From: Candidatus Omnitrophota bacterium
Lineage (GTDB): Bacteria; Ratteibacteria; UBA8468; B48-G9; DTJG01
Length of the DNA: 64,000 nucleotides
Assembly (NCBI GenBank): GCA_023818965.1
Contig: JAMWCD010000006.1
Span: forward strand, 205,475-269,474
Reading direction: 5' to 3'
The position numbers were made by a program, and so were the translations under genes. The notes below the pieces were generated by a model that had not been told where the DNA came from, searched no databases, and saw only the letters and a list, made by a program, of their open reading frames with translations. Of the stretch, positions 1-46,635 are shown piece by piece; within the stretch, counting starts at the first letter, position 1, and each line of letters begins with the position of its first letter.

Positions 1-1932
<1,932 letters not shown>

Positions 1933-1935
1933 CTG

Positions 1936-3090
1936 ATGATTGGCTATTTTGATGTTCGAAATGGTTGTGCAGGGGATATGATAGCAGGTTCTCTCGCCAG
2001 TTGTGTGGATATTGGAGAAATCAAAAAGCAACTTAAATTGATAGATTTCCCTACAAAGTATGATATTGAAATAAAACAGGTCATCAGACACACAGGGAAA
2101 TTTCATGGTATCAAAGCCAATCAATTTATTGTAAAACTTGAAGAAAAAGAAAACGATAGAAAATATAGAGAGATTGTTTCTATTTTTAAAAACAGCAGAC
2201 TTAATGAACCTGCAAAAGAAAAAATTTTAAAAGTGTTTGAGACACTTGCAAAGGCAGAATCAAAAGTACACAATGAATGTCTGGATAAGTTGCATTTTCA
2301 CGCTGTTGGTCAAACAGACGCACTTGTAGAGGTTGCTTTTTCTATTCTTGCCCTTGAGCAACTTGGAATCAATGAGGTTTTTGCTTCTCCTGTAGGTGTT
2401 TCAAACATAGCACCAGCAACAATGGAAATGATTTCAGGCATACCTGCGGTTTTCCGTGATATTCCATTTGAAATCACAACACCAACAGGAATTGCCATAA
2501 TTGTGTCTCTTGTTAAATCATATGGTGACAGTCCGCCAGTGATTACAACTGGTTATGGTTATGGTACTGGAACAATTCAAACCGAATTTCCAAATACTGT
2601 GTTGTTTGCATACGGAGAACCGTCTTATCAAAAATATGAGAAAGTAGGAATTATTGAAACATCAGTGGACGATACCAATCCAGTGATTTTTGAATATTTG
2701 ATTGAAACTCTTTATCAGGCAGGTGCGCTTGAGGTATGTTTTTTTAATGCGATAACGAAAAAATCAAGACCGCTGTTCTGTATCAGGGTCTTGTGCAAAC
2801 CCGAACAAAAAGAAATACTTTCAAAAATAATTTTTCAACAAACCACAACGCTCGGTATCAGGTACAGGGAAGAGGAGAGATTGATTCTTGAAAGAAAAAT
2901 TGAAAAGGTTAAAACAAAATATGGAGAAATAAGTATCAAGATTGGATATCTCTCAGGAAAACCAGTGAACATCATGCCCGAATATGAGGATTGCAAAAAG
3001 ATTGCAGCAGAAAAAAATGTTCCTGTTAAAAAAATTATTAATGAAGCACTCAGGCGAGCCATTGAAGAAATGGATGAAAATCGGTTATAA
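1936..3090 (+). CDS. LarC-family (DUF111) nickel-pincer cofactor insertion protein
   Basis: 384 aa. N-terminus MIGYFDVRNGCAGDMIAGSL matches the LarC/DUF111 start pattern (xLYLDCFSGISGDMxLGAL). Length fits LarC. Confidence 0.6.
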   Translation: MIGYFDVRNGCAGDMIAGSLASCVDIGEIKKQLKLIDFPTKYDIEIKQVIRHTGKFHGIKANQFIVKLEEKENDRKYREIVSIFKNSRLNEPAKEKILKVFETLAKAESKVHNECLDKLHFHAVGQTDALVEVAFSILALEQLGINEVFASPVGVSNIAPATMEMISGIPAVFRDIPFEITTPTGIAIIVSLVKSYGDSPPVITTGYGYGTGTIQTEFPNTVLFAYGEPSYQKYEKVGIIETSVDDTNPVIFEYLIETLYQAGALEVCFFNAITKKSRPLFCIRVLCKPEQKEILSKIIFQQTTTLGIRYREEERLILERKIEKVKTKYGEISIKIGYLSGKPVNIMPEYEDCKKIAAEKNVPVKKIINEALRRAIEEMDENRL

Positions 3091-3178
3091 TATAAGTTTG
3101 AAAACAGAAATATCGAACCGTAGAATCAGAGTACATAAAGAAATTTCAAATTGATTTAAAAAATCACAGGGAGCCAAA

Positions 3179-3472
3179 ATGGTTGTTGGCGTGTGGAAGG
3201 TTGAACTGCATATTCCTTACGCTCAGAACCTTAAGGATAAAAGAAATATTCTGCAATCAGTTGTTACGAAAACAAGAAATCGCTTTAATGTTTCTGTTGC
3301 TGAACTTGATTACAAGGATAAGTGGCAGAGATGTGTTATGGGGATTGCCTGTGTGGATTCAGAATACAGAAAAGCAGAAAATGTTTTTTCATCTATCAGG
3401 AAAATTTTTGAAGAGACAGGTTCTGTCATTGTTGTTAAGGAAAACATCAGTTATTATCCGCTGGAGGATTAA
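3179..3472 (+). CDS. DUF503 (YlxP-like) small protein
   Basis: 97 aa. VVGVWKVELHIPYAQNLKDKRN...FNVSVAELDYKDKWQR matches the DUF503 signature. Sits directly upstream of valS. Confidence 0.55.
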   Translation: MVVGVWKVELHIPYAQNLKDKRNILQSVVTKTRNRFNVSVAELDYKDKWQRCVMGIACVDSEYRKAENVFSSIRKIFEETGSVIVVKENISYYPLED

Positions 3473-3477
3473 AAATA

Positions 3478-22909: not shown

Positions 22910-23647
22910 ATGAAATATGAATTGATGACACCAGATTTAATACGAAGTGCCATAAAAAGATCATTACCTGTGGTATTGCCTGCTGGAGTTATTGAGTACC
23001 ATGGAGAACATCTGGGAGTAGGAGTGGATACACTGGTGATCACAAGGGTGATTGAAGAAATTGAAAAACAAATAGATATTGTTGTTTTACCAGCATTTTT
23101 TTATGGTTCAGCCAGTTATGCGGTAGAGCCACCTGAACAGAAGGGAACAATTCATATTTCTTCAGAAACAGTTTTCAAATTTGCAATTGAATTATTTCAT
23201 GGACTGTTAAGGATTGGTTTCAGAAATATTTATGTGATTGTTCATCATCAGAGTGAAAATTTTACTTCAGGAATGCCAACTGACCTTGCATTTAAACTTG
23301 CGGCAAAACAGGCAATATTTGATTTTCTCGAAAAACATCTTGGCGAGGGATGGTGGGGCAGTTCTGCAAACAATTACTATCAACAACAGAAAAAGGGAAA
23401 AGATCCGTTTAGCTGGATAAAGATTTATCCATTTATGAGTGAGGAAATTCAGAAAAAATTTCCAATAGACCATGCAGGGAAACTTGAAACTTCCCTGATG
23501 ATGGTTCTTTGTCCCGAGGCAGTGAATATGAAAAAATTTTCAGATAAAAACTGGTATACCCGGACAGCAAAACAGGCAACAAAAGATTATGGAAATGAAG
23601 TAAAAAAACATATTATTGAAAATCTTAAAAAAATTTTTTCTGAATGA
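22910..23647 (+). CDS. creatininase-family amidohydrolase
   Basis: MKYELMTPDLI...VLPAGVIEYHGEHLGVGVD matches the creatinine-amidohydrolase family N-terminal metal-binding pattern. Confidence 0.7.
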   Translation: MKYELMTPDLIRSAIKRSLPVVLPAGVIEYHGEHLGVGVDTLVITRVIEEIEKQIDIVVLPAFFYGSASYAVEPPEQKGTIHISSETVFKFAIELFHGLLRIGFRNIYVIVHHQSENFTSGMPTDLAFKLAAKQAIFDFLEKHLGEGWWGSSANNYYQQQKKGKDPFSWIKIYPFMSEEIQKKFPIDHAGKLETSLMMVLCPEAVNMKKFSDKNWYTRTAKQATKDYGNEVKKHIIENLKKIFSE

Positions 23648-23648
23648 A

Positions 23649-25409
23649 ATGAAAATAAGAATTCTTCGTTCGCCATACTCAAATTTTTACCACAGAGACA
23701 TTGAGGATTCAGTTAATACTCATCCTGACTGGTATCTTGAATCATTAAAAGAGCATGGATTTAATGGAATATGGTTGCACTGTATTTTACGAAATATTGT
23801 GCGATGCAGGCAATTTTCTGAGTTCGGGAAAAAAGAAAAAGAGCAGATTGATGCACTTAATAAAATTATTGAAAAGGCAGCAAAATACAATATCAGGGTG
23901 TTTCTTTATTTCTGTGAACCAAGGGGATTTAAAGATAATGAAACCTTCTGGAAAAACAATTCTGATGTAAGAGGACAGCCATTCAGTTTTAAAAACGCTG
24001 GTTTTCTCGACGGAACCTATTATGCTTTGTGTACAAGTACAAATAGAGTCAAGGATTACTTATATGAATCAAGCAGGAACCTTTTTAAAAAGGTACAGGG
24101 ACTTGCAGGAATATTTATGATTACAGCAAGTGAATTTCATACGCACTGCTACTCACATTATCCAAAGTGGAAATTAGATAAACATTCTTATACAATGGGC
24201 TGGTTGAGAAATGAATTTATTTGCGAAAGATGCAGGGAAAGAAATCCATCTGATGTTGTTGCTGAAATAATCACCATCATTAATCAGGGAATCAAATCAG
24301 TAAATAAGAATGCAGATGTTATTGCGTGGAGCTGGAGCTGGAACATTATTGAACCTGATCCTCAAAAAAGATTGATTCAATCCCTTCCAGAAGAAATCAT
24401 TTTAATGTGTGACTGGGAAAGGGGTGGATATAAAAAACTGAAAAACAAAAAATTTATTGTTGATGAATACAGTTTTTCTTATACAGGACCATCTCCAAAA
24501 TTTAAAAAACAATATGCTGTGGCAAGAGAGAAAAATATCAGGGTAATGGCAAAAATTCAGGTCAGCACAACTCATGAACTTGTAAGTGTTCCATATATTC
24601 CTGTTCCACATCTATTGGCTGAAAAGATTGAAAAAATGAGAAAAATGAATCTTGAGGGATATCTTGGTTGTTGGATTTTTGGAGGAGAAATATCGCCCAT
24701 GAGTAAAATAGCAGGAATGATGTCGAAAGACAAAAAAATTTCAAAAAGTGCTGCAATACGACAGGTTGCACAGCATTATTACGGCAAAAACAGTTCTGCA
24801 GTTACAAGGGCATGGAAATATTTTTCATACGCATGGAAATATTATCCTTTCAGTATTCCATTTTTGTATTATGGACCAATCAATTATGCCACAATATACC
24901 CATTTTATTTGAAAAAATCAAAAAATTTTATAATTCCTTCATGGCAACCATTGCCAAGGGATAAAAATTTTCATCTCAGGCAGAGTACAGATTTATCATG
25001 GGCAGGTTCACCTCCTTTTACAGTTCGTGATGTGATTTATCTGTTAAATAAAATGCTTGAAACATGGAAAAAAGGAATTAATCAACTTGAGACAGTAGCA
25101 AAAAAACAACCTTCTTTTTCGATTACGAAAGAACTCAATCTTGCTATTCATATTGGTTTTTTGATTGAAAGTACAAAACACATCATTGAATTCTGCCAGT
25201 TGATAGGACAAATTGAACAAAATAAGAAAGAAGTCAAAAAAATCCTTGAAAGACAACTTGAAATAGCAGAAAAAGAAACAGAGATTATTCAAAGGTATAA
25301 GTTTGGCTATCACCCAGAAGCCCACGAATTTTTTATCACAGTAGAAGATTTAAAAAGAGAAATCAGAATCATCAGGAAACAATTGATGCTTTTGTCAAAG
25401 ATAAGATGA
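23649..25409 (+). CDS. hypothetical protein (possible TIM-barrel glycosidase-like enzyme)
   Basis: 586 aa ORF translationally coupled to the creatininase gene, with no signal peptide. Cys-containing motifs loosely resemble those in the 982-aa secreted protein. Function unknown. Confidence 0.35.
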   Translation: MKIRILRSPYSNFYHRDIEDSVNTHPDWYLESLKEHGFNGIWLHCILRNIVRCRQFSEFGKKEKEQIDALNKIIEKAAKYNIRVFLYFCEPRGFKDNETFWKNNSDVRGQPFSFKNAGFLDGTYYALCTSTNRVKDYLYESSRNLFKKVQGLAGIFMITASEFHTHCYSHYPKWKLDKHSYTMGWLRNEFICERCRERNPSDVVAEIITIINQGIKSVNKNADVIAWSWSWNIIEPDPQKRLIQSLPEEIILMCDWERGGYKKLKNKKFIVDEYSFSYTGPSPKFKKQYAVAREKNIRVMAKIQVSTTHELVSVPYIPVPHLLAEKIEKMRKMNLEGYLGCWIFGGEISPMSKIAGMMSKDKKISKSAAIRQVAQHYYGKNSSAVTRAWKYFSYAWKYYPFSIPFLYYGPINYATIYPFYLKKSKNFIIPSWQPLPRDKNFHLRQSTDLSWAGSPPFTVRDVIYLLNKMLETWKKGINQLETVAKKQPSFSITKELNLAIHIGFLIESTKHIIEFCQLIGQIEQNKKEVKKILERQLEIAEKETEIIQRYKFGYHPEAHEFFITVEDLKREIRIIRKQLMLLSKIR

Positions 25410-25551: not shown

Positions 25552-26889
25552 ATGAGAAAGATATTTAAGAAGGTGATGGCTTGTTTTTCAGGAATACTTC
25601 TGGCAGGTATGCTTTTGACAGTAAATGTAATTGGTGCAGAAGTAAAACATAAGCCAATAACTGAGGAACTCATAAATTTGTTGAAAAAGAACCCGGAGAT
25701 TCAGGTAATGCTGGAGAAATCTATTGCACAAGCCAGAAAAATCAATCCTGACCTAAGTACTAATCCAGTTCAAAGTTTATCTGCATATTTTGACTTTGTG
25801 GATGAGATGGCTGATGTTTTTCCGCTTCAGAAACTTGAAAATTCTCAACTCTCTGCCTGCAACCAGATATACCAGAATATTCGTTATTTCTACTTCCTGA
25901 TAGGTCAGCCTGTTCCTGAGTTAGAGGGCAAGAAACTCTATAAAAATTCACTTCAATACTATCCTCCTTTTTCTAAGTGGTTATACCATTTTGTCCAGAT
26001 AAGGGGTAAGTTTTTAGACACAGAGGAATCATGGAATGAAAAGATTTATCAGAGGATTTACAATGATCCTCTTTTTAACCTTCAAAAAGGATGGTATGAA
26101 TCTCCATCCAACTGGAAAACTTTTAATCAATTTTTCGCAAGACGTCTTAAATCACCTGATATGCGTCCAATTGCTTCTCCTGATGATCCATCAGTTGTGG
26201 TTTCACCAGCAGATTCTGTTCCTCAAGGTGTATGGATGATTGATGAAAAATCAAACATTCGGGTAGTGAGAGGATTGAAGATTAAGAATGAGTATTATTA
26301 CAACATTGCTGACCTTCTTGGAAAAGATTCTCCTTATAAAAACGCATTTGCTAATGGTGTGCTTACCCACACTTATTTAAGTGCAGGTGATTATCATCGC
26401 TACCACTTTGCAGTTGGGGGCAAGGTTGTGGCAAAAAAAATCATACCACAGAATGTTGCCTATGAAGTGTTGTGGGTGCCAGAACTGAAAGGATATGCAA
26501 CAGTTGATTCCACTGGCTGGCAGTTTACTCAAACCCGCGGTTATGTAATTGTTGATACCGGAAAATATGGTCTTGTAGCGCTTATTCCTATGGGTATGGA
26601 TATATGCTCCTCTATTAATTTTGAAGATAATGTGAAAGTTGGGAGAACTTTTAAGAAAGGGGACCCATTAGGATATTTTAAATACGGTGGTTCAGATTTT
26701 ATTATGCTTTTCCAGAAAAAGGCAGGATTTGAAATCACTGCTCCTGTGGCAAAGGATACAGAAACAAAATCACTTTATGGCGCACAGAAAGGAGATGAAT
26801 ACAGGCAGGCGGTTTACAAACATATCCTTATGGGCGAAGAATATGGCAGAATGAAAGGAACAGAAAATGCAAAGAAGGAGAAAAAATGA
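25552..26889 (+). CDS. secreted phosphatidylserine-decarboxylase-like (pyruvoyl-dependent decarboxylase family) protein, paralog 1
   Basis: 445 aa with a signal peptide. The C-terminal region GDPLGYFKYGGSDFIMLFQ aligns with the PSD self-cleavage/active-site segment (GxxxxFxxGGST). Has a long N-terminal extension. Confidence 0.6.
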   Translation: MRKIFKKVMACFSGILLAGMLLTVNVIGAEVKHKPITEELINLLKKNPEIQVMLEKSIAQARKINPDLSTNPVQSLSAYFDFVDEMADVFPLQKLENSQLSACNQIYQNIRYFYFLIGQPVPELEGKKLYKNSLQYYPPFSKWLYHFVQIRGKFLDTEESWNEKIYQRIYNDPLFNLQKGWYESPSNWKTFNQFFARRLKSPDMRPIASPDDPSVVVSPADSVPQGVWMIDEKSNIRVVRGLKIKNEYYYNIADLLGKDSPYKNAFANGVLTHTYLSAGDYHRYHFAVGGKVVAKKIIPQNVAYEVLWVPELKGYATVDSTGWQFTQTRGYVIVDTGKYGLVALIPMGMDICSSINFEDNVKVGRTFKKGDPLGYFKYGGSDFIMLFQKKAGFEITAPVAKDTETKSLYGAQKGDEYRQAVYKHILMGEEYGRMKGTENAKKEKK

Positions 26890-28070
26890 AAAAACTAATG
26901 ATCCTGGCGGCTGCAATTTTTGTTTTGTGTTCAGGCATTATCACATCTGCAAACCCGCAGCAAAGTTCAACGGTTGAGTTCCATCCAGTAATTAAGGAAT
27001 TTAATATTCTACTGCAACAGGACCCTATTGTAAGAATGTATGTAACAGAAATGATAGACCAGCTTCCTGAGGGACAAAAAAATGTAAAAGATGTAAATGA
27101 CTTTTTGTCTCAATTGAATCAAATTTTGACCACTGCGCCAAAGTTTAGTAAAGGAGAAGTGGAAGTAACACCCCTTTCCAATCTTCTTGTCGGAATGATG
27201 AATACCCCTGCTGGGTTCCATGCCCTCAGGAATGAGAAAATTAATAATATGCTCAGGAAAATATTAAAAACCTGGGCTGAATTTCTTAATAGCGAAAAAT
27301 CATTATATGTTCTCAATGATTCTCCTGGTGGTTGGAAATCAAAAGAAGCCCAAAAGTTTTTGAAGATGGACGACTATCTCTATGACCCAAACGATAGGTA
27401 CTGGGGATATAAATCCTGGAATGACTTTTTCACCAGAAAGGTAAAACCATCTGCACGACCGATTGCACAACCCGACAATAACAAAATTATTATTAGCCCT
27501 TGCGATACAACCATATTTAACATAAGTTACAATGTAAAAAAGGTTGATAAATTCTGGATTAAATCTCAACCTTATTCCCTTCAGGATATGCTTGACAACA
27601 GTCCATATACTGATGAGTTTGTAGGAGGAAGTGTTATCCAGGGGTTTCTTTCTCCGTTTAATTATCACCGCTGGAACAGTCCTGTCTCTGGAACCATTGT
27701 CATGGCATATGTAAAAGATGGGCTTTATTTTAGTCAGGCAGAATCACAGGGAGTAGACCCATCTGCACAGGACAAATCACAGGGTTATTTAGCCCATGTG
27801 CAAACTCGGGCACTTATTTTTATAAAAGCCGATGACCCTGAAATTGGTTTGATGTGCTTTATGCCTGTTGGTATGGTTGAAGTTTCTTCGTGTATCATTG
27901 ACCCCAAAATAAAACCTGGTTATCATGTGAAAAAGGGAGAGGATCTGGGTTATTTCCAGTTTGGCGGGTCAACACAGTGCTTAATATTCAGGAAAGGAGC
28001 AATTAAGAAATTCACTGCAGTAAAAGGACGGTTTTACAAGATGGGAGAAGAGATTGCGATTGCGAACTGA
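26886..28070 (+). CDS. secreted phosphatidylserine-decarboxylase-like protein, paralog 2
   Basis: 394 aa with a signal peptide. GEDLGYFQFGGSTQCLIFRKG contains a canonical GST processing motif. Overlaps paralog 1 by 4 nt. Confidence 0.65.
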   Translation: MKKLMILAAAIFVLCSGIITSANPQQSSTVEFHPVIKEFNILLQQDPIVRMYVTEMIDQLPEGQKNVKDVNDFLSQLNQILTTAPKFSKGEVEVTPLSNLLVGMMNTPAGFHALRNEKINNMLRKILKTWAEFLNSEKSLYVLNDSPGGWKSKEAQKFLKMDDYLYDPNDRYWGYKSWNDFFTRKVKPSARPIAQPDNNKIIISPCDTTIFNISYNVKKVDKFWIKSQPYSLQDMLDNSPYTDEFVGGSVIQGFLSPFNYHRWNSPVSGTIVMAYVKDGLYFSQAESQGVDPSAQDKSQGYLAHVQTRALIFIKADDPEIGLMCFMPVGMVEVSSCIIDPKIKPGYHVKKGEDLGYFQFGGSTQCLIFRKGAIKKFTAVKGRFYKMGEEIAIAN

Positions 28071-28097: not shown

Positions 28098-28230
28098 TTT
28101 TGTTATTATAGTTTTCAGGGAAAGGCAAAACTTGAAATTACAACTTTAAAAGAAATCTCTGCATATAATTATATTCTTATGGGGCAAGAGTATGGAGTAA
28201 TGAAAGCAGATAATTGGATTTTTCTCTAAT
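28098..28230 (+). pseudogene. decayed 3' remnant of a third PSD-like paralog
   Basis: Translation QGKAKLEITTLKEISAYNYILMGQEYGVMKADNW parallels the C-terminal tail of paralog 1 (QKKAGFEIT...AVYKHILMGEEYGRMKGTEN). It has no start codon and no upstream body. Confidence 0.4.
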
Positions 28231-28245
28231 TGACTGAGGGATGAT

Positions 28246-29232
28246 ATGAAACAGAAGAAAAAAATCAATTTGCTTTCAATTTTAATTGCAGTGTATTTTG
28301 TTACGATCCTGCTTTTCATTATATCGTTTCACAACCTGAAAATTAAAAACTCAAGGGCAATGATATCTCTTTTTCAGGGTCTAACTGAAAACAAAATATA
28401 CTATGAGAACCGTAAAGGAAAAATTTTTCAATTTCCTGAAAATGTTAAAAAATATTCTGTTAAGATTGCCAGTCAGTCAGATGCCAATGATTATTATGGT
28501 CTAAAAACAAGTGGATATAAAGACGGCTATGATATTTATTCTGATGACTCGCAGTTTGCAAACGATTGTCAACAGACAATTGATGATGCTCGCAATCTCA
28601 TAAATGTTTTTATGCAAAGCAAACTACTTGAAGCCATACGCAGTCAGGGGAAGAAACCAGCCATTATGTTTGATATTGATAACACGCTGGAATTTTCTTC
28701 CCGAATTGATACAGATTTAAAGGGGCAGGGACCTCCTGTGAAACCAGTGGTGGAATTGGTAAAATATTGCTTAAAAAATGGTATTGAGTGCTATTTCATA
28801 ACAGCGCGGGCTCGAAGTGATAGTAGAGAATTGTCTTCTACAAAAATATGGATGAAACAAACTTTTGGCTTTTCTGACTTTCAACTACGAAAATATGTTT
28901 ATCTTGTTGGTGATCTTGCGTATGGCAGGTACCATAATATTTGCCCTGGCCTGGGAAAAAATGTAAGTATTGCCTATAAAGATGTTTTAAGAAAGGTTTT
29001 AAGTGAAAAAGATGGTGTTGTCTGGATTATGAGTATTGGAGACCAGTTGACTGATGTGTACGGGAAAAATAGTGGCGTTAAAATTTTGGTTCCCAATCAA
29101 TTGTTTGACAATGCTATTGTGCCCAATCCTTATTACGATAAAACCGGAGAGAGGTTGCAGGTGAAAGAACTCCCTTCAGAATGTTATCCTCAAATTAAGG
29201 AAGTAATCCTGAATATCAGTCGTATTGATTAA
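28246..29232 (+). CDS. membrane-anchored HAD-superfamily phosphatase (class B/IIIB acid-phosphatase-like)
   Basis: 328 aa. N-terminal TM anchor, HAD motif I AIMFDIDNTLE, and downstream motifs (FITARA..., GDQLTD). Confidence 0.55.
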   Translation: MKQKKKINLLSILIAVYFVTILLFIISFHNLKIKNSRAMISLFQGLTENKIYYENRKGKIFQFPENVKKYSVKIASQSDANDYYGLKTSGYKDGYDIYSDDSQFANDCQQTIDDARNLINVFMQSKLLEAIRSQGKKPAIMFDIDNTLEFSSRIDTDLKGQGPPVKPVVELVKYCLKNGIECYFITARARSDSRELSSTKIWMKQTFGFSDFQLRKYVYLVGDLAYGRYHNICPGLGKNVSIAYKDVLRKVLSEKDGVVWIMSIGDQLTDVYGKNSGVKILVPNQLFDNAIVPNPYYDKTGERLQVKELPSECYPQIKEVILNISRID

Positions 29233-30359: not shown

Positions 30360-31190
30360 TTAAATTTTCGATAAAATTTTTTTGACCAGCAAAACAGAAT
30401 TTTTTGCAGCATAATTCACAAATTTCTCAAAATTAATTTCCGCATCTTCGTCTGCAAGGTCACTGATAGACCTGATAAGTAAAAATGGAACGTTATTTAT
30501 TTCACAAACCTGAGCAACAGCCCCACCTTCCATTTCTGTCGCCATGGCATTAAATGTTTCCAATAACCACTTTCGTTTTGTTTTTGATACAATAAACTGA
30601 TCTCCGGTAACTATGATTCCGCTGACAATTTTCGGAATCCTTACTTCTTCAGATACAATAGTTCCTTCAGGTAATTTATCAAATGTTATTCCACGAGAAA
30701 CAGTCATAGCAATATTTAACAACTTCTCATCTGTTTTAAAATATACACTTTCAATATTGACTTTACCTTCTGGAAGTGTTCCTGGCCTAAAAGGAGAGAA
30801 TCCCTGAGGACCTATGCTTCCATAATCATGCTGAGCTACTTTTGTGGCAATAACCAGATCCCCGATACCAAGATCAGGTGATACTCCTCCGGCAATTCCT
30901 GTGAAAATTATTTTTTCTACCTTAAATTTTGTTATCAACAACTGACTGGTTATAGCAGCGTTCACTTTTCCCATTCCTGCTTCTACTAAAACAATTTCTT
31001 TCCCTTCTAATTTACCTGAATAGAAAACTCTTCCAGCGATTTTTGTTTCTTTCATTAACTTCATTTCGTCTTTCAATAACTTTATTTCTTCATTTAATGC
31101 CCCCATTATGCCAATCTGCGCTGATGCAGATGGATTTATAAATAAAAAGCACCATAACAAAAAAATACTGTATTCCATAAATTGATTCAT
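30360..31190 (-). CDS. exported nucleoside phosphorylase-fold enzyme, MTA/SAH nucleosidase (Pfs/MtnN)-like
   Basis: Signal-peptide-like start (MEYSIFLLWCFLFINPSASA/Q), then IGIMGALNEE...VEAGMGKVNAA...ATEMEGGAVAQV, typical of the PNP/UDP-1 family MTA nucleosidases. The track ORF extends upstream to 31271. Confidence 0.6.
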   Translation of the reverse strand: MNQFMEYSIFLLWCFLFINPSASAQIGIMGALNEEIKLLKDEMKLMKETKIAGRVFYSGKLEGKEIVLVEAGMGKVNAAITSQLLITKFKVEKIIFTGIAGGVSPDLGIGDLVIATKVAQHDYGSIGPQGFSPFRPGTLPEGKVNIESVYFKTDEKLLNIAMTVSRGITFDKLPEGTIVSEEVRIPKIVSGIIVTGDQFIVSKTKRKWLLETFNAMATEMEGGAVAQVCEINNVPFLLIRSISDLADEDAEINFEKFVNYAAKNSVLLVKKILSKI

Positions 31191-31618
31191 TTTGACCATA
31201 TCTATTGCTCCTGTAAGTGTTAGGTGCACTGCATCTGAATTTAATTTACATCTGATAATTTTGCCTGTCAAATTTTGTGTTTACAAAATTAGAAAAACTT
31301 AGAATGCCACGGTCTGATTTTGGAATCCGTTGATAATCTTAAATTGTTCTGTTTTTCCTGTTATATCTAATACTAATTTGCCATCAAAATTGTAGGAATA
31401 CCAAATTGAGTTCGCCAGAGAGCAAGGCGGCAAGGAGAAGGCAACGAGGCATACTGAAGTATGTTGAGGAAGCCGACGACGCAGCCAACGATGCTATATG
31501 GATGAAATCAATTCGGTATAAAAAGACAGGATGATTCGTCGTACTTATTTTGAAAATCCTTTTGACACATTCCTGGAAAAGAGTTAATATTAAAACGGTT
31601 CTTTAACGAGGAGGGAAA

Positions 31619-39405: not shown

Positions 39406-41157
39406 ATGAAAATAGGCAAGCAAAGGCGACTTGTTTTTGATTTTGGGACATACCATATTCGTGCTATTGAAATCGCGCCAGGTAGAAATGCCAAAAAGTT
39501 CACAATTAACTACTACCAGCAATATGATACCCCACCATTTGCATATGATGCGAGAATTCCTGTTCTCAGGACAGAAGGGAATGAATTTATAAAATCACTT
39601 GGTGTCAAAAGGGCAGCAGTTTCTCTTCCTGGCAGGGGCATTCTTATCAGAGCCATTACTGTACCAAAGGTTCCTCTCGGAAAATTGAGGGACATTCTTA
39701 AATTTGAAATCCAGCAGCAGATTCCATTTCCGATTGAGGTTGTTGCCTGGTCATATCAAATTATTTCTGAATCAGATAAAAGTTTTCAGGTTTTGTTGTG
39801 TGCTGCAAAAAAAGACCTTGTTAATGATTTCATTGCTCATCTCTCACCATTTGCACTAACAATTGAAACCCTTGATACGGATTTCTTCGCCATTTACAAT
39901 CTTTTCCGGATATCACCTTTTTATAAGTCAGATGAGTGTCAGGCAATTCTTGATATTGGTGCTCAAAGTGCAAACCTCATTATAAATCACCAGGACAGAA
40001 TCTTAATGAGGTCATTAACTACAACAGGTGACAGTATTTCGTCCACACTGGCAGAATCAAAGAAAATTGAATTTACTGAAGCAGAAAAAATAAAAATTGA
40101 ACAGGGTATGAAATCATCTGAAATATCCTCACTTGTGGACTCCCTTAATACAGAACTGCAGAATTCAATTGACTACTGGCGCTTTACATTAAAAGGTCCT
40201 GAATTAAACAGATTTTTTATTTGTGGTGGTACTTCAAAAATGATTGGTTTAAAAGAATATCTTGAACAGAAACTCAGGGTTCCTGTGGTTTATCTTGATC
40301 CACTTATGTTCTGTGATGTTGACCCTGAATATCAGGAATATCTTGCCGATAAAGGTCCTGAAATTGCTACTGCCTGTGGTATTGCATTAAGGACAATTAA
40401 ACTTAACCCAATTGAAATTGATATGTTGCCTGTTGAGATTATCAGAATGAGAGAATTTGCTGAAAACAGGCCTTATATATTTTTATCCACAATAATGGCA
40501 GTGTTGCTCACATTGACACCACTGTTTTTCTTGAGAATAGAAAAAACCGGTTATGAGAACTATAAAAAAGAACTTGAGACATCCCTGCAGGAATATGAAA
40601 AGTTTAAACCACAGGTCGAAGCCCTTCAGAAAAGTATTAATGATGTGAAAGGCAAGATTGGAGTTGTTCAGGACTTATTTGAAAAAAAAGCATTATGGCT
40701 TGCAAGAATCATTGAAATTGGCAGTAATCTACCAAGCAGTAGAATTTACCTGAACAATATTTATCCTTCAGGAACTCAGGTTGCTCAGGCTGCTCCTGCA
40801 CCGGCTCCTCAACCGGGACAGCCACCCGGACCTCCTGGTCCTGGAGCAGGTACACCACCTCCACCAGGAGCACCTGGTACTGCAGAGCCACCACCTGCTC
40901 CGGTAGCAGCTCCACAGCCGGCTCCACAACCATCAGCGCAAACAGGGGCACCTTCAACATTACCTGAAAAGATAGATGTACTGACCCTTGAAGGTGAAGC
41001 AATTGCAACCGATATTAGAAGTGCTTTTTCTGATTTGAAATTTTTTGTTCAAAGACTTTCAAGTTTGCCATTTTTTTCTGAGGTTGTTATAAACTCATGT
41101 GAACTTGACAGGGAAACAGGTAAACTGAAGTTTCTTCTAACTGCAAAGATAAAATGA
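39406..41157 (+). CDS. type IV pilus assembly PilM-PilN fusion protein
   Basis: 583 aa. Residues 1 to about 340 form an actin-like PilM ATPase fold (VFDFGTYHIRAIEI...FICGGTSKMIGL). After that come a TM helix (IFLSTIMAVLLTLTPLFFL), a coiled coil, a Pro-rich linker (APAPAPQPGQPPGPPGP...), and a PilN-like periplasmic domain. Confidence 0.75.
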   Translation: MKIGKQRRLVFDFGTYHIRAIEIAPGRNAKKFTINYYQQYDTPPFAYDARIPVLRTEGNEFIKSLGVKRAAVSLPGRGILIRAITVPKVPLGKLRDILKFEIQQQIPFPIEVVAWSYQIISESDKSFQVLLCAAKKDLVNDFIAHLSPFALTIETLDTDFFAIYNLFRISPFYKSDECQAILDIGAQSANLIINHQDRILMRSLTTTGDSISSTLAESKKIEFTEAEKIKIEQGMKSSEISSLVDSLNTELQNSIDYWRFTLKGPELNRFFICGGTSKMIGLKEYLEQKLRVPVVYLDPLMFCDVDPEYQEYLADKGPEIATACGIALRTIKLNPIEIDMLPVEIIRMREFAENRPYIFLSTIMAVLLTLTPLFFLRIEKTGYENYKKELETSLQEYEKFKPQVEALQKSINDVKGKIGVVQDLFEKKALWLARIIEIGSNLPSSRIYLNNIYPSGTQVAQAAPAPAPQPGQPPGPPGPGAGTPPPPGAPGTAEPPPAPVAAPQPAPQPSAQTGAPSTLPEKIDVLTLEGEAIATDIRSAFSDLKFFVQRLSSLPFFSEVVINSCELDRETGKLKFLLTAKIK

Positions 41158-42077
41158 AAAAAATACTGAGTTTTTTAAAAAAGAATCTTGTTTTTGTTTT
41201 CCTTGTGATTGTTCTTGGGCTACTGGGTTTTGGGTTTAATCTTATAAGAAAGACGCAGCAGGAACTTAAGAAGATGGAAGAAGAGATAAAGGCGAAACAT
41301 GATGAAATAAGAAAGTATGAAACTCAGAAAGAACTGGCACCATCACCAGAACTTGTCAATAAATTGCAAAAACAATATACTGCGGTTGCAGAACAGTTTA
41401 ACTCTCTGTTAAACCGTTTTTCCACAACCTATCCAGCAGTACCTGAGTTTAAGGTTTTCCCGAATGTTGAATTTAAGGAATTTCTTTTTGAGACAGGAGA
41501 CCAGTTAAAAAAGAAAGCCAAAAAGAATAATGTAATTATACCCTCATCCTTTGGATTTCAGGAGACAGGTTTTCCATCACCTGACCAGATACCATTATTT
41601 TCGTTACAGATTACTGTAATCAAGCATATTCTTGACCTGCTTATTGATTCAGGTATCAGTGTTGTTAATTCGGTTGTCCCTGGTATTCCATCAACGGTTG
41701 CTTTTTATAAAATCCTTCCTCTTGATGTATCAATTACAGGAACAAGCATTGAAATTATCAGGTTTTTAAGATACCTTAACAATCCTTCATCATTCTTCAC
41801 ACTTGAAAGTTTTGCTGTGACAAAGAAGGACACAGGTTTATTTCAGGGGAATTTTAAAATCAATGCTGTGATGATTGAAAAAGCAGCCGCAGTTGTTACT
41901 TCTGAAATACCAAAAGGGACACAGCCTTCTGCACAGGGAGCACCAGGAAGTCCTTCCGGGCAGCCACAGGGAGTACCAGGAAGTCCTCCTGGAGTTCCCC
42001 AGCAGCCACAGAAAGTACCAGGACACCCTGCTGGTGTTCCCGGGCAGCCACAAGCACCACCTAATCCTGTTAAATAG
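41154..42077 (+). CDS. PilO-like inner-membrane pilus assembly protein
   Basis: 307 aa. N-terminal TM helix, coiled coil, periplasmic alpha/beta domain, and a Pro/Gln-rich tail. Lies in the PilO position, translationally coupled to pilMN. Confidence 0.55.
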   Translation: MKKILSFLKKNLVFVFLVIVLGLLGFGFNLIRKTQQELKKMEEEIKAKHDEIRKYETQKELAPSPELVNKLQKQYTAVAEQFNSLLNRFSTTYPAVPEFKVFPNVEFKEFLFETGDQLKKKAKKNNVIIPSSFGFQETGFPSPDQIPLFSLQITVIKHILDLLIDSGISVVNSVVPGIPSTVAFYKILPLDVSITGTSIEIIRFLRYLNNPSSFFTLESFAVTKKDTGLFQGNFKINAVMIEKAAAVVTSEIPKGTQPSAQGAPGSPSGQPQGVPGSPPGVPQQPQKVPGHPAGVPGQPQAPPNPVK

Positions 42078-42085
42078 GGATACTT

Positions 42086-44695
42086 ATGCAAAAAGATTTT
42101 ATTTCAAAGTGGAAGAATGCGGATAGAAAAGGTAGAAAGAAAATTCTGTGTGATTTTATTGCAGCAAAAAGAAGACAAAAAACAAATGTTTCAGATACAA
42201 GAAAAAAAATCTCATTACAGAATAAATCTGCGAGAAAACCTGTTTTGTCCTGTCTACCGAAGATTCCTGAAATTAAAAGACATGCCCTTGCATTTTGCTT
42301 TTCCTCATCCTCAGATTCACCGACTGGAGCAAGAGATGATAACATTCAGGATTCAGGCGGTGAAGACCAGCCACCAAAGTCGCCTGAAGAACCTTCAAGA
42401 AAATCAAATATGAATGTCGATAAAGGTCCTGAAATTAAAAAAGACAAAGCCCGCCAGGATAAAAAGCAATTACTGATTAGATTTATTGAAGAAAAGAAAA
42501 GGGAAAAAGAAATTGCACAGAAGCAGCGACATGCAGAGAAAGAGGCGAGGAAGAAGTTAGCAGAGGAAGCCAGGAGGCAGGCGCAGGAGAAACTGGCGAT
42601 AGATGCAGAGGCGAGGCGGCAGGCGAAGCAATTGCGTCGGCAGGAGTTATTGAAGGCAAAGATAGAGAGAGAGATAAAGGCGAAAGCAGAGAGGCAGGCA
42701 AAGATAGAGGCGAAGCAGAAGGAGAAGGAGGCGATAGAGAAGAGCCGTCAGGTTGAGCTAGAGGAGAGGAAGAGATTAGTTGAAGAGGCATTGAAATTAA
42801 GGAAGCAGAAGAAGGAATTGCTTGTAGCATACCTTAATGGAATAAGAAGCAAGAGGGAGATAGAGCAGAAGCAACGACTTGCAGAGAAAGAGGCGAGGAA
42901 GAAGTTAGCAGAGGAAGCCAGGAGGCAGGCGCAGGAGAAACTGGCGATAGATGCAGAGGCGAGGCGGCAGGCGAAGCAATTGCGTCGGCAGGAGTTATTG
43001 AAGGCAAAGATAGAGAGAGAGATAAAGGCGAAAGCAGAGAGGCAGGCAAAGATAGAGGCGAAGCAGAAGGAGAAGGAGGCGATAGAGAAGAGCCGTCAGG
43101 TTGAGCTAGAGGAGAGGAAGAGATTAGTTGAAGAGGCATTGAAATTAAGGAAGCAGAAGAAGGAATTGCTTGTAGCATACCTTAATGGAATAAGAAGCAA
43201 GAGGGAGATAGAGCAGAAGCAACGACTTGCAGAGAAAGAGGCGAGGAAGAAGTTAGCAGAGGAAGCCAGGAGGCAGGCGCAGGAGAAACTGGCGATAGAT
43301 GCAGAGGCGAGGCGGCAGGCGAAGCAATTGCGTCGGCAGGAGTTATTGAAGGCAAAGATAGAGAGAGAGATAAAGGCGAAGGCAGAGAGGCAGGCAAAGA
43401 TAGAGGCGAAGAAAATTTCTCCGAAAGTAAAGCCACCAGATATCAGACCAGAAAAAAGAAAAAAATTACTTTCCTTTATCAATGATCTGAAAGCAAAATA
43501 TCAGCAGGAAGTCATAAGACAGAAGATTGCAAAAGATGCCTTGAGGAAGCAAAAAGAAATTGCGGTTCTTGCATTAAAACAGGAAAGGCAGGCAAAAGCA
43601 ATTCAGGCAGCCGAATTCAGGGCACGGAAAAAACAAATTGAACTCCAGAAAAAAGAACTTCTCAAGGCAGAATTACTTCTTGCTGCAAAAAGAAAAGCAG
43701 AAGCAAAGGCAGTTGAGAAATCACGCAAAGAATATGAAAAACAGATTAAGGATTTTTCATCAAAAATTACTGGTGCTGTTTCAAATGTAAGCAAGTTGAC
43801 TGGGGCTGCTCTTACATCAGCAATTTCTTCTGTAACTCCATTTGTTAAGAAAGCCCAAAGTATTAAGGTCCCTGCTGCTGAAAAATTTGCAAAACCTGAG
43901 ATTGTTCCTGCAGAAGTTCCTGCAAAAGCAATACCTGCAAAAGCAGAAAAGGCAAAAAAGTACAGAGAACCAGTAAAGATTGGACCACTGTTGAGAAAGA
44001 ATGCATTCAGAATTCTTTTCTTGCTTTTACTTTTGATGTGGCTTGGCGAAATTTTGTTTTATTCACTGAGATGGCGACCGCCAAGGGAAAAGTTTGAGGA
44101 AATGTTTGGTTCTGAAGAAGCAAAATCCAGTAAAACAGGTTCTACTGAAATAACAGAGGCAGAAACAAAAATAGCAGAATATAAAATTCCTTCCATTAAC
44201 ATTGAAGGGAAAAGAGACCCATTTTCAAGTGGATTGTTGACAATGGAATTGATGAAAAAACCGAAACCAACAGAAATTGTAAAGGCATATCAACCCGAGA
44301 TTATTACAATTTCAAGAGCACCATCAATTGTTTCCTCCAGTGTTCAAAAACCTATAAGAGAAAAGGCAGAAAAGATTACACCGATTCTGAAACCAGAGAA
44401 ACCCGAACCAGCCACTGCAACATTGTCTGAGGCAACAACAACAAAGATACTTCCACCTGCTCCTGTTTCAAAACCTGAAGTTTCGCCATTGATTGTTCCA
44501 CAGATTGAGTGTAATCTTATCTACAGGGGTAGTTTGATTATGGAAGGGATTGAATATATTTTCCTTGAAGGCAAACAGAGAACATACAGGGTAACAGTTG
44601 GTGATGTTGTAGAAGGTTTCAGGATTCTGAAAAAAGAAAAGGGAGTGCTCACATTATCAAAGGAAGGAGTTATAATTGAAATTCCTGCTGAATAA
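42086..44695 (+). CDS. 869-aa bitopic protein: long E/K/R-rich helical N-terminal region containing tandem repeats, one TM helix, a Pro-rich linker, and a C-terminal PilP/GspC-HR-like beta domain
   Basis: No signal peptide. About 640 aa of KEKE-type charged helix. TM at FRILFLLLLLMWLGEILFYSL. The C-terminus (ECNLIYRGSLIMEGIEYIFLEGKQRTYRVTVGDVVEGFRILKKEKGVLTLSKEG) resembles the PilP / GspC homology-region fold. Sits in the pilP position between pilO and pilQ. Confidence 0.5.
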   Translation: MQKDFISKWKNADRKGRKKILCDFIAAKRRQKTNVSDTRKKISLQNKSARKPVLSCLPKIPEIKRHALAFCFSSSSDSPTGARDDNIQDSGGEDQPPKSPEEPSRKSNMNVDKGPEIKKDKARQDKKQLLIRFIEEKKREKEIAQKQRHAEKEARKKLAEEARRQAQEKLAIDAEARRQAKQLRRQELLKAKIEREIKAKAERQAKIEAKQKEKEAIEKSRQVELEERKRLVEEALKLRKQKKELLVAYLNGIRSKREIEQKQRLAEKEARKKLAEEARRQAQEKLAIDAEARRQAKQLRRQELLKAKIEREIKAKAERQAKIEAKQKEKEAIEKSRQVELEERKRLVEEALKLRKQKKELLVAYLNGIRSKREIEQKQRLAEKEARKKLAEEARRQAQEKLAIDAEARRQAKQLRRQELLKAKIEREIKAKAERQAKIEAKKISPKVKPPDIRPEKRKKLLSFINDLKAKYQQEVIRQKIAKDALRKQKEIAVLALKQERQAKAIQAAEFRARKKQIELQKKELLKAELLLAAKRKAEAKAVEKSRKEYEKQIKDFSSKITGAVSNVSKLTGAALTSAISSVTPFVKKAQSIKVPAAEKFAKPEIVPAEVPAKAIPAKAEKAKKYREPVKIGPLLRKNAFRILFLLLLLMWLGEILFYSLRWRPPREKFEEMFGSEEAKSSKTGSTEITEAETKIAEYKIPSINIEGKRDPFSSGLLTMELMKKPKPTEIVKAYQPEIITISRAPSIVSSSVQKPIREKAEKITPILKPEKPEPATATLSEATTTKILPPAPVSKPEVSPLIVPQIECNLIYRGSLIMEGIEYIFLEGKQRTYRVTVGDVVEGFRILKKEKGVLTLSKEGVIIEIPAE
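42500..43408 (+). repeat. 2.7 copies of a 348-bp (116-codon) in-frame tandem repeat; copies 2 and 3 are essentially identical at the nucleotide level
   Basis: Repeat unit (Q)KQRLAEKEARKKLAEEARRQAQEKLAIDAEARRQAKQLRRQELLKAKIEREIKAKAERQAKIEAKQKEKEAIEKSRQVELEERKRLVEEALKLRKQKKELLVAYLNGIRSKREIE. The mirrored antisense ORFs at 42483, 42834 and 43182 confirm the 348-bp period. The coding strand is purine-rich and GC-rich relative to its surroundings. Confidence 0.9.
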
Positions 44696-44739
44696 CTTGA
44701 CTTATGTTCAATTATCACGGTATAATACATGGAGGGAAA

Positions 44740-46635
44740 ATGAGAGGAATTAAAAAGACAAAAATCGCATTATTATGTTTTTCGCTGGCACTCTGGGGAT
44801 ATGTCTTACCTTCAATGGCTCAGACAACAAAAACATTTGCCACTTCCACAACAGAACTTGACCTTCTTTATAGCGATGCCATCAAAAGTTATTATCAAAA
44901 GGACTATGCAAGAGCAATAGCGCTTTTTAAACAGATCCAGGGTCTTTCTCCTGAATATAAAAAATCGCAGATCAACCATTATGTCAGAACTGCTGAAAGT
45001 CGTCTTGGCAAGACAACTCCTGTTACTGTTTTCAAGGTTCCTGGACAGCCGACAAAAGAAATAGAAATTAATAAAGAAGGTGAACTTGAAGCAATGGCTG
45101 AAGAAGCACAGAAAGTGCTGCTAAATACAGCCAGTTATCTGGATTCAGTAGAAAAAGAAGGCAAACTAACTGAGTTTCAACTTGTTGGTCCGAAATCATC
45201 CTTGAAAATGGCAAAAGAAGCATATGAAAACAGTCAATACACAGAGGCGATACGACTTGCCAATAAAGCAAGATTCCAGATTGACCAGTTTATTACTCAG
45301 AAAAAACCAGGTATCGTTCTTGGAAAATATGCTGACTATCCTGTAACACTGAATCTTACAGATGCAGATTTAAGCCAGACATTAAAATTGATTTATGATT
45401 TAACAGGTGCCAATATTGTATTGATGCAGGGTATTACCGGAAGGGTTTCAATCAATGTCAAGGACCTTCCCCTTCAGAGGGTTCTTGATCTTATATGTGA
45501 GGCGAACAATCTGAAGTATGTTGAGGACAATGGTGTAATAAAAATAATGACAGCAGAAGAATTTAATAAGTCCGCTGCAGCAGTGAAAGCGCGGTTGCGC
45601 AGGGTTTTCCAGGTTTACTATGGAGATGCCTTCAGTATAATGAAGGCACTAAAAGAAACATATCCAACTCAGACGATTGTTCATGATCCAAGAACAAATT
45701 CAATCATTGTTGAGGCATCTGATGAAGAAACTGCCGCAAGAATTGGAGAGATTGTTTCTTCACTTGATACACCGATTTCTCAGGTACTGCTTGAGGCAAA
45801 ACTTGTTGAAATTGTACTTTCTGATGAGAATACATTTGGTATTGACTGGCTTGTAAGTTCACGACTTGTTTCTGCTCTTGGTTCAGGCGGAACTCTAACA
45901 GGACCAAGATTCGGGGATAATCCGAATTTTACTCCTGGAGTATCCTCTTCCTTACCTCAGGGAACATTTTCTTTTGGAATAACAAATTATGATGTAAATG
46001 CCTTGATTCAGGCATTAAGTGCAAAGGGACAGGTGAAACTATTGCAGGCACCAAAGATTATGTGTCTCAATGGTACAACAGCAGTGATCAGTGTACAGAC
46101 AAACGTACCATATTTGATACCCCAATCAACTGTATCACAGCAGCAGCAAACCATTACGACAACCGCAACATTCAATGTTTTTGAAGACCAGGTTGGAACA
46201 GAGTTTACTGTTACTCCTATTATTCAGAGAAACAGGAGTATCTTTTTGAACCTTAACATCTATGATGCACGTTTGATAGAAATTAAACGATTGACAGCAA
46301 TCGCAGGAGGACAGCAATATTCAACAGACCAGCCCGTGATTTCAAACAGGGAAACAAACCAGAGTATTGTTGTTTATGATGGTCAAACCTTGATTATCGG
46401 TGGTATGATTCAGGATAGGAAAGAACTTAAAACTACAGGTGTTCCTTTTCTCCAGCATATACCACTATTGGGATATCTTTTTAAGAAACCAAGTTACAGC
46501 AGTGCAAAAAGTGAGATGTTACTGTTTTTGACACCAAGGGTAGTAAGTACATATGAGGATGCTAATGCTGTCAGTAAGCCAGATGTACAAAAACTGGACA
46601 AAAAGATTGATGCCGGTATTCTTGAAAAGTACTGA
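44740..46635 (+). CDS. pilQ: PilQ-type secretin
   Basis: Signal peptide, TPR-like helical segment, secretin N domain (VTLNLTDADLSQTLKLI...), secretin core (VLLEAKLVEIVLSDENTFGIDW), and the C-terminal signature GVPFLQHIPLLGYLFKKPSY...LLFLTPRVV. Confidence 0.85.
   Translation: MRGIKKTKIALLCFSLALWGYVLPSMAQTTKTFATSTTELDLLYSDAIKSYYQKDYARAIALFKQIQGLSPEYKKSQINHYVRTAESRLGKTTPVTVFKVPGQPTKEIEINKEGELEAMAEEAQKVLLNTASYLDSVEKEGKLTEFQLVGPKSSLKMAKEAYENSQYTEAIRLANKARFQIDQFITQKKPGIVLGKYADYPVTLNLTDADLSQTLKLIYDLTGANIVLMQGITGRVSINVKDLPLQRVLDLICEANNLKYVEDNGVIKIMTAEEFNKSAAAVKARLRRVFQVYYGDAFSIMKALKETYPTQTIVHDPRTNSIIVEASDEETAARIGEIVSSLDTPISQVLLEAKLVEIVLSDENTFGIDWLVSSRLVSALGSGGTLTGPRFGDNPNFTPGVSSSLPQGTFSFGITNYDVNALIQALSAKGQVKLLQAPKIMCLNGTTAVISVQTNVPYLIPQSTVSQQQQTITTTATFNVFEDQVGTEFTVTPIIQRNRSIFLNLNIYDARLIEIKRLTAIAGGQQYSTDQPVISNRETNQSIVVYDGQTLIIGGMIQDRKELKTTGVPFLQHIPLLGYLFKKPSYSSAKSEMLLFLTPRVVSTYEDANAVSKPDVQKLDKKIDAGILEKY

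Follow-up and report, generated by a model that had tools for sequence, protein, structure and literature searches.

Two adjacent genes for predicted exported members of the PsiD/Ao-ADC1 branch of the phosphatidylserine decarboxylase superfamily in a Candidatus Omnitrophota bacterium

The window analyzed here is a stretch of 64,000 nucleotides from a Candidatus Omnitrophota bacterium (contig JAMWCD010000006.1). It contains two adjacent forward-strand genes, here called P1 and P2, whose products belong to the phosphatidylserine decarboxylase (PSD) superfamily and are predicted to be exported. The P1 gene (25552..26889, +) encodes a 445-aa proenzyme of a subfamily with a GGSD processing motif, as supported by the open reading frame (ORF), the PSD domain match (PF02666, 8e-39), the family alignment and an AlphaFold (AF2) model. 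The P2 gene (26886..28070, +) encodes a 394-aa proenzyme of the PsiD type with PSDC and PSD domains, and is supported by the ORF, PF12588, PF02666, the match to PsiD and an AF2 model. A strong Shine-Dalgarno sequence (AAAGGAGG) lies 7 nt before the ATG of P1, and a 143-bp gap separates P1 from the preceding gene. The ATG of P2 overlaps the stop codon of P1 (ATGA), and GAAGGAG is found upstream of the P2 start; the two genes are therefore probably translationally coupled. Promoter and terminator scans of the locus gave signals at background level and were uninformative.

The Pfam profile PS_Dcarbxylase (PF02666, cutoff 22 bits) matched residues 191-395 of P1 (26122..26736, +; 8.1e-39, 133.8 bits) and residues 178-391 of P2 (27417..28058, +; 6.1e-44, 150.5 bits). 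The triad alignment also supports this catalytic domain in P1, and conservation together with alignment to PsiD and the E. coli PSD (EcPSD) supports it in P2. The N-terminal region of P2 (residues 33-157; 26982..27356, +) matches the PSDC/PsiD-like profile PF12588 at 1.2e-34. The corresponding region of P1 (about residues 33-180; 25648..26091, +) is helical in the AF2 model, and hhalign comparison of the two families gave a probability of 99.9 and an E-value of 4e-32 over 347 columns that include this N-terminal helical region; the homology of P1 to P2 thus spans its full length, and P1 carries a divergent PsiD-like domain that is not detected by Pfam. Past the PSD segment, P1 continues for about 50 further residues with a conserved YKHILMGEEYG tail. 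Sec signal peptides, each with a basic n-region and an AXA-like site, are predicted at residues 1-29 of P1 (25552..25638, +; MRKIFKK, a hydrophobic core and VIGA/EV) and at residues 1-22 of P2 (26886..26951, +; MKK, a hydrophobic core and TSA/NP). The initial annotation of this DNA had described two adjacent exported PSD-family ORFs with long N-terminal extensions, each ending with the PSD-type segment. The ORFs, the PF02666 matches and the predicted signal peptides bear out the exported pair, and the extensions correspond to the helical PsiD-like domain in both proteins. The terminal position of the PSD segment holds for P2, where the domain reaches residue 391 of 394; it does not hold for P1 because of the additional tail.

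The two genes had also been regarded as tandem paralogs. They are adjacent and homologous; however, a recent tandem duplication is ruled out, as P1 and P2 share only 25% identity, whereas each is 55-65% identical to its own homologues in many phyla. By sequence comparison, P1 and P2 are ancient, distant paralogs from two large prokaryotic subfamilies. Homologues of both are named "phosphatidylserine decarboxylase (family protein)" in public sources. None of the NCBIfam equivalogs for PSD and archaetidylserine decarboxylase was reached by P1 or P2, the best scores being 86.1 and 119.7 bits, respectively, against a cutoff of 371; the scores against TIGR00163 were 69 and 81 bits (cutoff 111.75). 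The homologues P0193 and P0027, and a paralog of a third type at locus L067, were likewise under the PSD equivalog cutoffs. Since all the NCBIfam equivalog scores are far under the cutoff, neither P1 nor P2 qualifies as a true PSD. A scan of genome contigs gave only three loci, all of them distant and P2-type.

Both families were aligned with PsiD and EcPSD, the sequence of the latter being verified by the residue numbering of PMC7952604. The processing motif of P1 is G379-G380-S381-D382 (26686..26697, +) in the context Y-G-G-S381-D-F, where GGSD is conserved; that of P2 is G360-G361-S362-T363 (27963..27974, +) in the context F-G-G-S362-T-Q, where GGS is invariant. The pairs G380-S381 of P1 and G361-S362 of P2 align with G253-S254 of EcPSD and G402-S403 of PsiD. 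The putative catalytic triad on the forward strand consists of D221 (26212-26214), H282 (26395-26397) and S381 (26692-26694) in P1, which are family-invariant, and of D207 (27504-27506), H261 (27666-27668) and S362 (27969-27971) in P2, assigned by conservation and alignment. The equivalent residues are D90/H144/S254 in EcPSD and E242/H296/S403 in PsiD. In each family the triad and the GGS motif vary little or not at all, and in the P2 homologues the invariant G-S pair of the GGS motif is followed by T in 118 of 120 sequences. Thus the G-S processing site expected for this superfamily was located in both proteins. P1 is predicted to be cut between G380 and S381, with S381 converted to the pyruvoyl group and residues 381-445 forming an alpha chain of 65 residues; the predicted cut in P2 lies between G361 and S362, and its alpha chain would comprise residues 362-394.

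The GGSDF site of P1, with Asp in place of the Thr that follows the processed Ser, had been pointed out from the sequence alone. The motif is indeed present, and its meaning can be refined. GGSD was found in 119 of 119 close homologues of P1 (58-65% identity, many phyla), in which D382, S381, H282 and D221 are invariant. A wider GGSD clade was collected with HMMER in an exhaustive search, in which 165 representatives reached E<=1e-30; here GGSD was found in 104 of 109 representatives, and D382, H273, H282, H285 and D221 are nearly invariant. In view of this invariance in both the P1 family and the wider clade, GGSD appears as a hallmark of the clade and not as a degenerate site, and D382 probably has a mechanistic role. 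It is thus extremely unlikely that P1 is catalytically dead or degenerate through the replacement of Thr/Ser by Asp. In the characterized enzymes the motif is LGST, GGST or GGSS (PMC7952604, PMC12904898, PMC11929908), and GGSD does differ from these; however, the invariance of the triad and D382 across phyla argues for strong purifying selection on an active P1 site. The idea that Asp382 marks a cationic substrate was downgraded, as D382 spans a broad clade with varied fusions, while residue E305 varies among E, G, D and Q. This E305 of P1 aligns with the Glu of the TYFAE strand of the arginine decarboxylase Ao-ADC1, where Gln is present in PsiD and P2, which is only suggestive of a specificity residue.

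Comparison with solved structures placed P2 close to PsiD, the L-tryptophan decarboxylase of Psilocybe cubensis (PDB 8x4q, 8zia). In sequence searches, P2 matched PsiD at 1.9e-57 (residues 23-361), Ao-ADC1 at 1.6e-41 and E. coli PSD at 9e-9. The AF2 model of P2 (predicted local distance difference test, pLDDT, 85.1) superposed on PsiD with a template modelling (TM) score of 0.84 and a root mean square deviation of 3.1 Å, and on Ao-ADC1 with a TM score of 0.75, over both domains. PsiD is therefore the closest solved relative of P2, in line with the comparison to PsiD-like amino-acid decarboxylases in the initial annotation. The two proteins have the same PF12588 and PF02666 architecture with about 32% identity, and the self-cleavage His and Ser as well as the GGS motif are kept in P2. 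PsiD is cleaved at GGSS using E242-H296-S403 (PMC11929908); the acid of the triad is Glu in PsiD, whereas it is Asp in P2. In addition, PsiD is a fungal, cytosolic enzyme of a biosynthetic cluster; whereas P2 is bacterial and has a Sec signal peptide.

P1 is much farther from PsiD than P2 (E about 1e-6 with the single sequence). Its matches among the solved relatives followed the order Ao-ADC1, PsiD and E. coli PSD. The AF2 model of P1 (pLDDT 82.9) gave top-ranked fold matches to PsiD and Ao-ADC1 with TM scores of 0.63-0.68 over about 400 columns, which are weaker than those of P2. The best solved match is Ao-ADC1 from Aspergillus oryzae (PDB 9jer), with E-values of 2e-13 for the single sequence and 2.9e-16 for the family profile, and with rank 1 in Foldseek; both the helix region at the N-terminus and the PSD domain are shared. 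Ao-ADC1 was reported to be pyruvoyl-dependent with a GGST site, to need no pyridoxal phosphate (PLP) and to have no PSD activity (PMC12904898). Its GGST motif is identical to that of P2; whereas P1 has GGSD. The identity between Ao-ADC1 and P1 is 19% in the structural alignment, and P1 differs by its longer alpha chain of 65 residues with the conserved C-terminal tail. Ao-ADC1 is fungal, and no signal peptide was reported for it in the literature searched.

The E. coli enzyme Psd (PDB 6l06, 7cnw) shares with P1 and P2 the catalytic fold, the D90/D142-H144-S254 positions and the G-S cleavage site, and a DYHRxH motif is common to P1 and E. coli Psd; however, it aligns to both models through the catalytic domain only. 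Genuine decarboxylation of phosphatidylserine or another aminophospholipid, whether at the inner membrane's outer face, on the outer membrane or on host or prey membranes, is an unlikely function for P1 and P2. Membership in the Pfam family and the public PSD annotation would fit such a function, and so would the resemblance of DYHRYH in P1 to DYHRVH in EcPSD. There is also a parallel in the PSD of Toxoplasma gondii, which, according to its description in Gupta et al. 2012 as cited in PMC10015115, is an exported, soluble member of the superfamily; this is a eukaryotic true PSD acting on phosphatidylserine, whereas P1 and P2 fall in the PsiD/Ao-ADC1-type branch. E. coli Psd is a monotopic enzyme of the cytoplasmic face that has an acyl-chain groove and, at its N-terminus, three amphipathic helices (PMC7952604); in P1 and P2 these helices are replaced by a signal peptide and the PsiD-like helical domain. 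The closest characterized relatives have no PSD activity (PMC12904898), and every PSD equivalog score is far under its cutoff. The phosphate ligands Y137 and S166 of E. coli Psd are not both kept in P1 or P2. At the Y137 position, Phe is found in 67 of 77 members of the P1 family and in 69 of 75 of the P2 family; at the S166 position, where the alignment is uncertain by one residue, the P1 family has Glu (71/77) and the P2 family has Ser (72/75). The usual pair in the P1 family is thus Phe and Glu, which also speaks against a lipid substrate.

The membership of P1 and P2 in the superfamily and in its PsiD/Ao-ADC1 branch is well supported. The only characterized members of this branch, PsiD on L-Trp and Ao-ADC1 on L-Arg, use free amino acids and not lipid, and it is on this ground that a role on free amino acids is proposed. 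The reading we favour, and consider fairly probable though far from certain, is that P1 and P2 belong to the PsiD/Ao-ADC1 branch as pyruvoyl decarboxylases that are exported and activate themselves, and that they act most likely on free amino acids or small amino-carboxylates in the periplasm and differ in their specificities. We infer the self-cleavage, the periplasmic location and the small-molecule substrates from these comparisons. In the proposed mechanism, P1 and P2 would be co-transcribed, translationally coupled and both exported via Sec. Each proenzyme, once folded outside the cytoplasm, would cut itself between Gly and Ser by means of the Asp-His-Ser triad, and the new N-terminal Ser would become the covalent pyruvoyl cofactor. 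The pyruvoyl group would then form a Schiff base with the alpha-amino group of the substrate, leading to loss of CO2, so that free amino acids or similar small amino-carboxylates might be turned into amines in the periplasm without an added cofactor. Such chemistry suits an extracytoplasmic site, because the cofactor is made from the enzyme's own Ser and no supply of PLP is needed. The two enzymes probably differ in specificity.

Several points weigh against this reading. P2 keeps a Ser (Ser283) at the position of EcPSD S166, and the P1 of the window has Tyr (Y275) at the position of Y137, and both residues would suit a lipid PSD. The indole pocket of PsiD is only partly conserved in P2: F289, L290, M373, E375 and F398 are kept; whereas Y117, V292 and T374 are replaced by Ser, Pro and Val, and the Y338 loop is shortened. 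The pocket therefore does not point to a specific substrate. The solved structures used for comparison included no type-II (Golgi/vacuolar, GGST) PSD, so that P1 and P2 might also be close to that type. The signal peptides were judged by a hydropathy heuristic and family-wide conservation. Finally, no conserved transporter or downstream amine-using gene was found beside P1- or P2-type genes in the neighborhoods surveyed.

The predicted export signals differ between the two families. In the P1 family, the mature protein starts with a conserved HKPIT, and in 102 of 105 sequences a hydrophobic N-terminus comes before it; lipoboxes occur in some of these, and the remaining three appear to be truncated by their start calls. 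The P2 family is heterogeneous, with Sec, lipoprotein and twin-arginine (Tat) signals (SRRDFNKLVAAG...; the last, for example, in P0027, P0030, P0035 and P0037) and many signal-less members; the close homologues share the Sec signal of P2. The P1 type is thus predicted to be essentially always exported, and the P2 type to be variably Sec-exported, Tat-exported, a lipoprotein or cytoplasmic. The Sec-exported forms would fold and self-cleave after export, and the Tat forms could leave the cytoplasm as alpha-beta complexes that are already cleaved. The cytoplasmic P2-type forms have in common a conserved "RRWLPN...W" segment near the N-terminus, which is reminiscent of the autoinhibitory N-terminus of PsiD with Trp27.

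The genomic context elsewhere was surveyed by a metagenome scan with the P1-family alignment, which recovered 80 loci, followed by tblastn and neighbor clustering. The commonest neighbor of P1-type genes is another paralog of the PSD superfamily, found at 15 loci overall; of the 29 loci flanked on each side by 1.5 kb or more, 10 have such a neighbor. Several loci (L052, L058 and L065) have the reversed order, with a P2-type gene ahead of the P1-type one. Members of a third exported subfamily of PSD-like proteins, with a signal peptide and a Y-G-G-S-L-F site, are encoded next to P1-type genes at L067 (5695-6906, +) and L077 (730-1896, -), and this GGSL subfamily is also found beside P1-type genes at L015, L022 and L023. 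Adjacent exported paralogs thus differ systematically in the residue after the pyruvoyl Ser, which is D, T or L. The second commonest neighbor is an exported dipeptidase of the Peptidase_C69 family, whose gene lies on the same strand, a median of 171 bp away, at 7 loci (L013, L016, L021, L022, L025, L046 at 1798-3570, and L077); it has about 590 aa with an N-terminal Cys nucleophile after the signal peptide. Many P1-type genes are solitary, such as that of Methyloprofundus sedimenti (P0193), and the neighborhoods of P2-type genes in other lineages showed no conserved partner. A gene for an MscS-type mechanosensitive channel was observed at L004 6383-7750, just upstream of a P1-type gene in Methyloprofundus, and at L086 3625-5052, where a P2-type gene of a further Omnitrophota genome is close by; these two cases may be a coincidence.

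Fusion proteins were also found. P0152 (624 aa) consists of a signal peptide, a complete PvlArgDC domain (PF01862, with the YTSVLP site) and a P1-type enzyme; whereas P0203 (511 aa; L005, 8001-9536) is exported and combines the N-terminal part of PF01862 with a P1-type enzyme and a C-terminal transmembrane helix. PvlArgDC enzymes such as AaxB have an unrelated fold, and use the same pyruvoyl self-cleavage and amino-acid decarboxylation chemistry as proposed for P1 and P2. AaxB self-cleaves at Ser53; arginine is imported before its decarboxylation by AaxB, and the agmatine is exported by the antiporter AaxC (PMC2720952). P0247 is an exported lipoprotein in which a P1-type enzyme is fused to an inosine-uridine nucleoside hydrolase, and distant proteins of the GGSD clade are fused to Condensation domains of nonribosomal peptide synthetases or to DUF3425. 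The wider-clade representatives with fusions are P0247, P0256, P0260, P0274, P0338 (from Aspergillus ibericus), P0339 and P0342. The neighbors and fusions point to chemistry of amino acids and small molecules, and not to lipid metabolism. There is a slight chance that the substrates are instead envelope-bound amino-acid moieties with free alpha-amino and carboxyl groups, for example the D-centre of meso-diaminopimelate in peptidoglycan, and that the enzymes serve envelope remodelling rather than nutrient processing. That P1-type proteins are obligately exported in many phyla, and in an archaeon, would agree with this, as would the lack of a conserved uptake or catabolic partner; however, no linkage to cell-wall genes was seen in 82 loci, the actual links are to the dipeptidase, PvlArgDC and the nucleoside hydrolase, and the characterized relatives act on free amino acids.

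The proposed decarboxylation of free amino acids might be extended to the P1 type as a whole, although this wider view is tentative and rather less likely to be right than wrong. The P1-type proteins (GGSD, HKPIT), widespread in anaerobic bacteria and some archaea, would be obligatorily exported, cofactor-autonomous amino-acid decarboxylases, often arranged in arrays with paralogs of the P2 or GGSL type whose specificities complement theirs, next to exported dipeptidases. In combination, these enzymes would convert peptides outside the cytoplasm into CO2 and biogenic amines or polyamines, a route not recognized before, and the decarboxylases would all be mislabelled as PSD. If so, the route might serve periplasmic pH control or polyamine scavenging.

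The soluble amino-acid decarboxylase branch of the PSD superfamily is known only from the two fungal enzymes PsiD and Ao-ADC1; prokaryotes hold thousands of uncharacterized relatives, including the nearly always exported GGSD subfamily. Our literature search found no characterized exported bacterial member of this branch, nor any characterized GGSD-type enzyme. The chemistry and the fold are already known; what is new is a GGSD subfamily with obligatory export, together with the arrays of paralogs and the links to the dipeptidase and PvlArgDC. If free amino acids are decarboxylated outside the cytoplasm, many annotations as "phosphatidylserine decarboxylase" would need correcting, there would be an additional PLP-independent source of environmental amines, and new self-activating decarboxylases might become available for biocatalysis. 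If the proteins were instead periplasmic lipid-modifying PSDs, they would indicate an unexpected site of bacterial aminophospholipid remodelling.

Downstream of P2 lies a gene (28246..29232, +) for a membrane-anchored protein similar to acid phosphatases of HAD subfamily IIIB (class B), as had been noted initially. The product matches PF03767 (Acid_phosphat_B) at 4.1e-13 and 49.8 bits (cutoff 27), and its translation shows a hydrophobic anchor at the N-terminus together with DxDxT (FDIDNT) and GDxxxD (GDQLTD) motifs; it is below the NCBIfam plant-AP equivalog cutoff. The phosphatase is present as described, but it adjoins P2 only in the closest relatives (L006-L009, where L006 is the window's own contig among the recovered loci), and a role as a conserved functional partner is unsupported beyond them.

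What is left of the 3' end of a P1-type gene (FQGKAKLEITTLKEISAYNYILMGQEYGVMKADN, about the last 34 codons; 28113..28214, +) lies in the apparent spacer that separates P2 from the HAD gene, and was identified by its similarity to the tails of the P1 family. This relic is 62% identical over 37 aa to P1-family C-termini, and 118 of 120 family tails match it (E<1e-3). The relic is present only on the window's contig and is absent from L007-L009. Its presence suggests that P2 was once followed by another gene of the P1 type, since deleted, and therefore that the present adjacency of P2 and the HAD gene arose by deletion of the intervening gene in this lineage. The order of P2 followed by a P1-type gene is still intact at L052, L058 and L065.

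These observations bear on a further explanation, in which phospho-amino compounds are processed in the periplasm in two steps: P2 would decarboxylate a substrate such as O-phosphoserine or glycerophosphoserine, and the HAD phosphatase would dephosphorylate the resulting phosphoethanolamine derivative. The two genes are adjacent in L006-L009, even where a rearrangement has separated P1 (L009), Ser283 of P2 occupies a phosphate-binding position of PSD, and an adjacent cupin shows a weak EutQ-like match (7e-4). However, the cupin match is generic, no HAD gene was found beside the P2-type genes at L043, L052, L058, L065 and L086-L089, and the relic shows the adjacency to be a product of deletion in this lineage. 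Such a pathway is therefore considered improbable.

Farther from the pair, a gene of the PNP_UDP_1 family (nucleoside phosphorylase/nucleosidase superfamily; 30360-31271, -) has a signal-peptide-like sequence (MEYSIFLLWCFLFINPSASA) after an internal start, and its product is possibly another exported salvage-type enzyme near the acid phosphatase. Directly upstream of P1 is a 597-aa ORF (23616-25409, +) with no Pfam or NCBIfam match, which is preceded by genes for a creatininase-family protein, an M24 creatinase/prolidase-like protein and a DUF4838/CBM9 protein. The M24, creatininase and 597-aa genes were rejected as partners, as they are found in this position only on the window's own contig and the gap of 143 bp precedes P1. 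Elsewhere in the window, an 869-aa ORF (42086-44695, +) without a Pfam match adjoins a secretin gene (44704-46635), and a 307-aa ORF (41154-42077) lies between it and a PilM-like gene (39406-41157). This ORF contains a 348-bp tandem repeat at 42518-43411 (2.6 copies, 99% matches), which accounts for the anomaly in GC content and AT skew at 42-44 kb.

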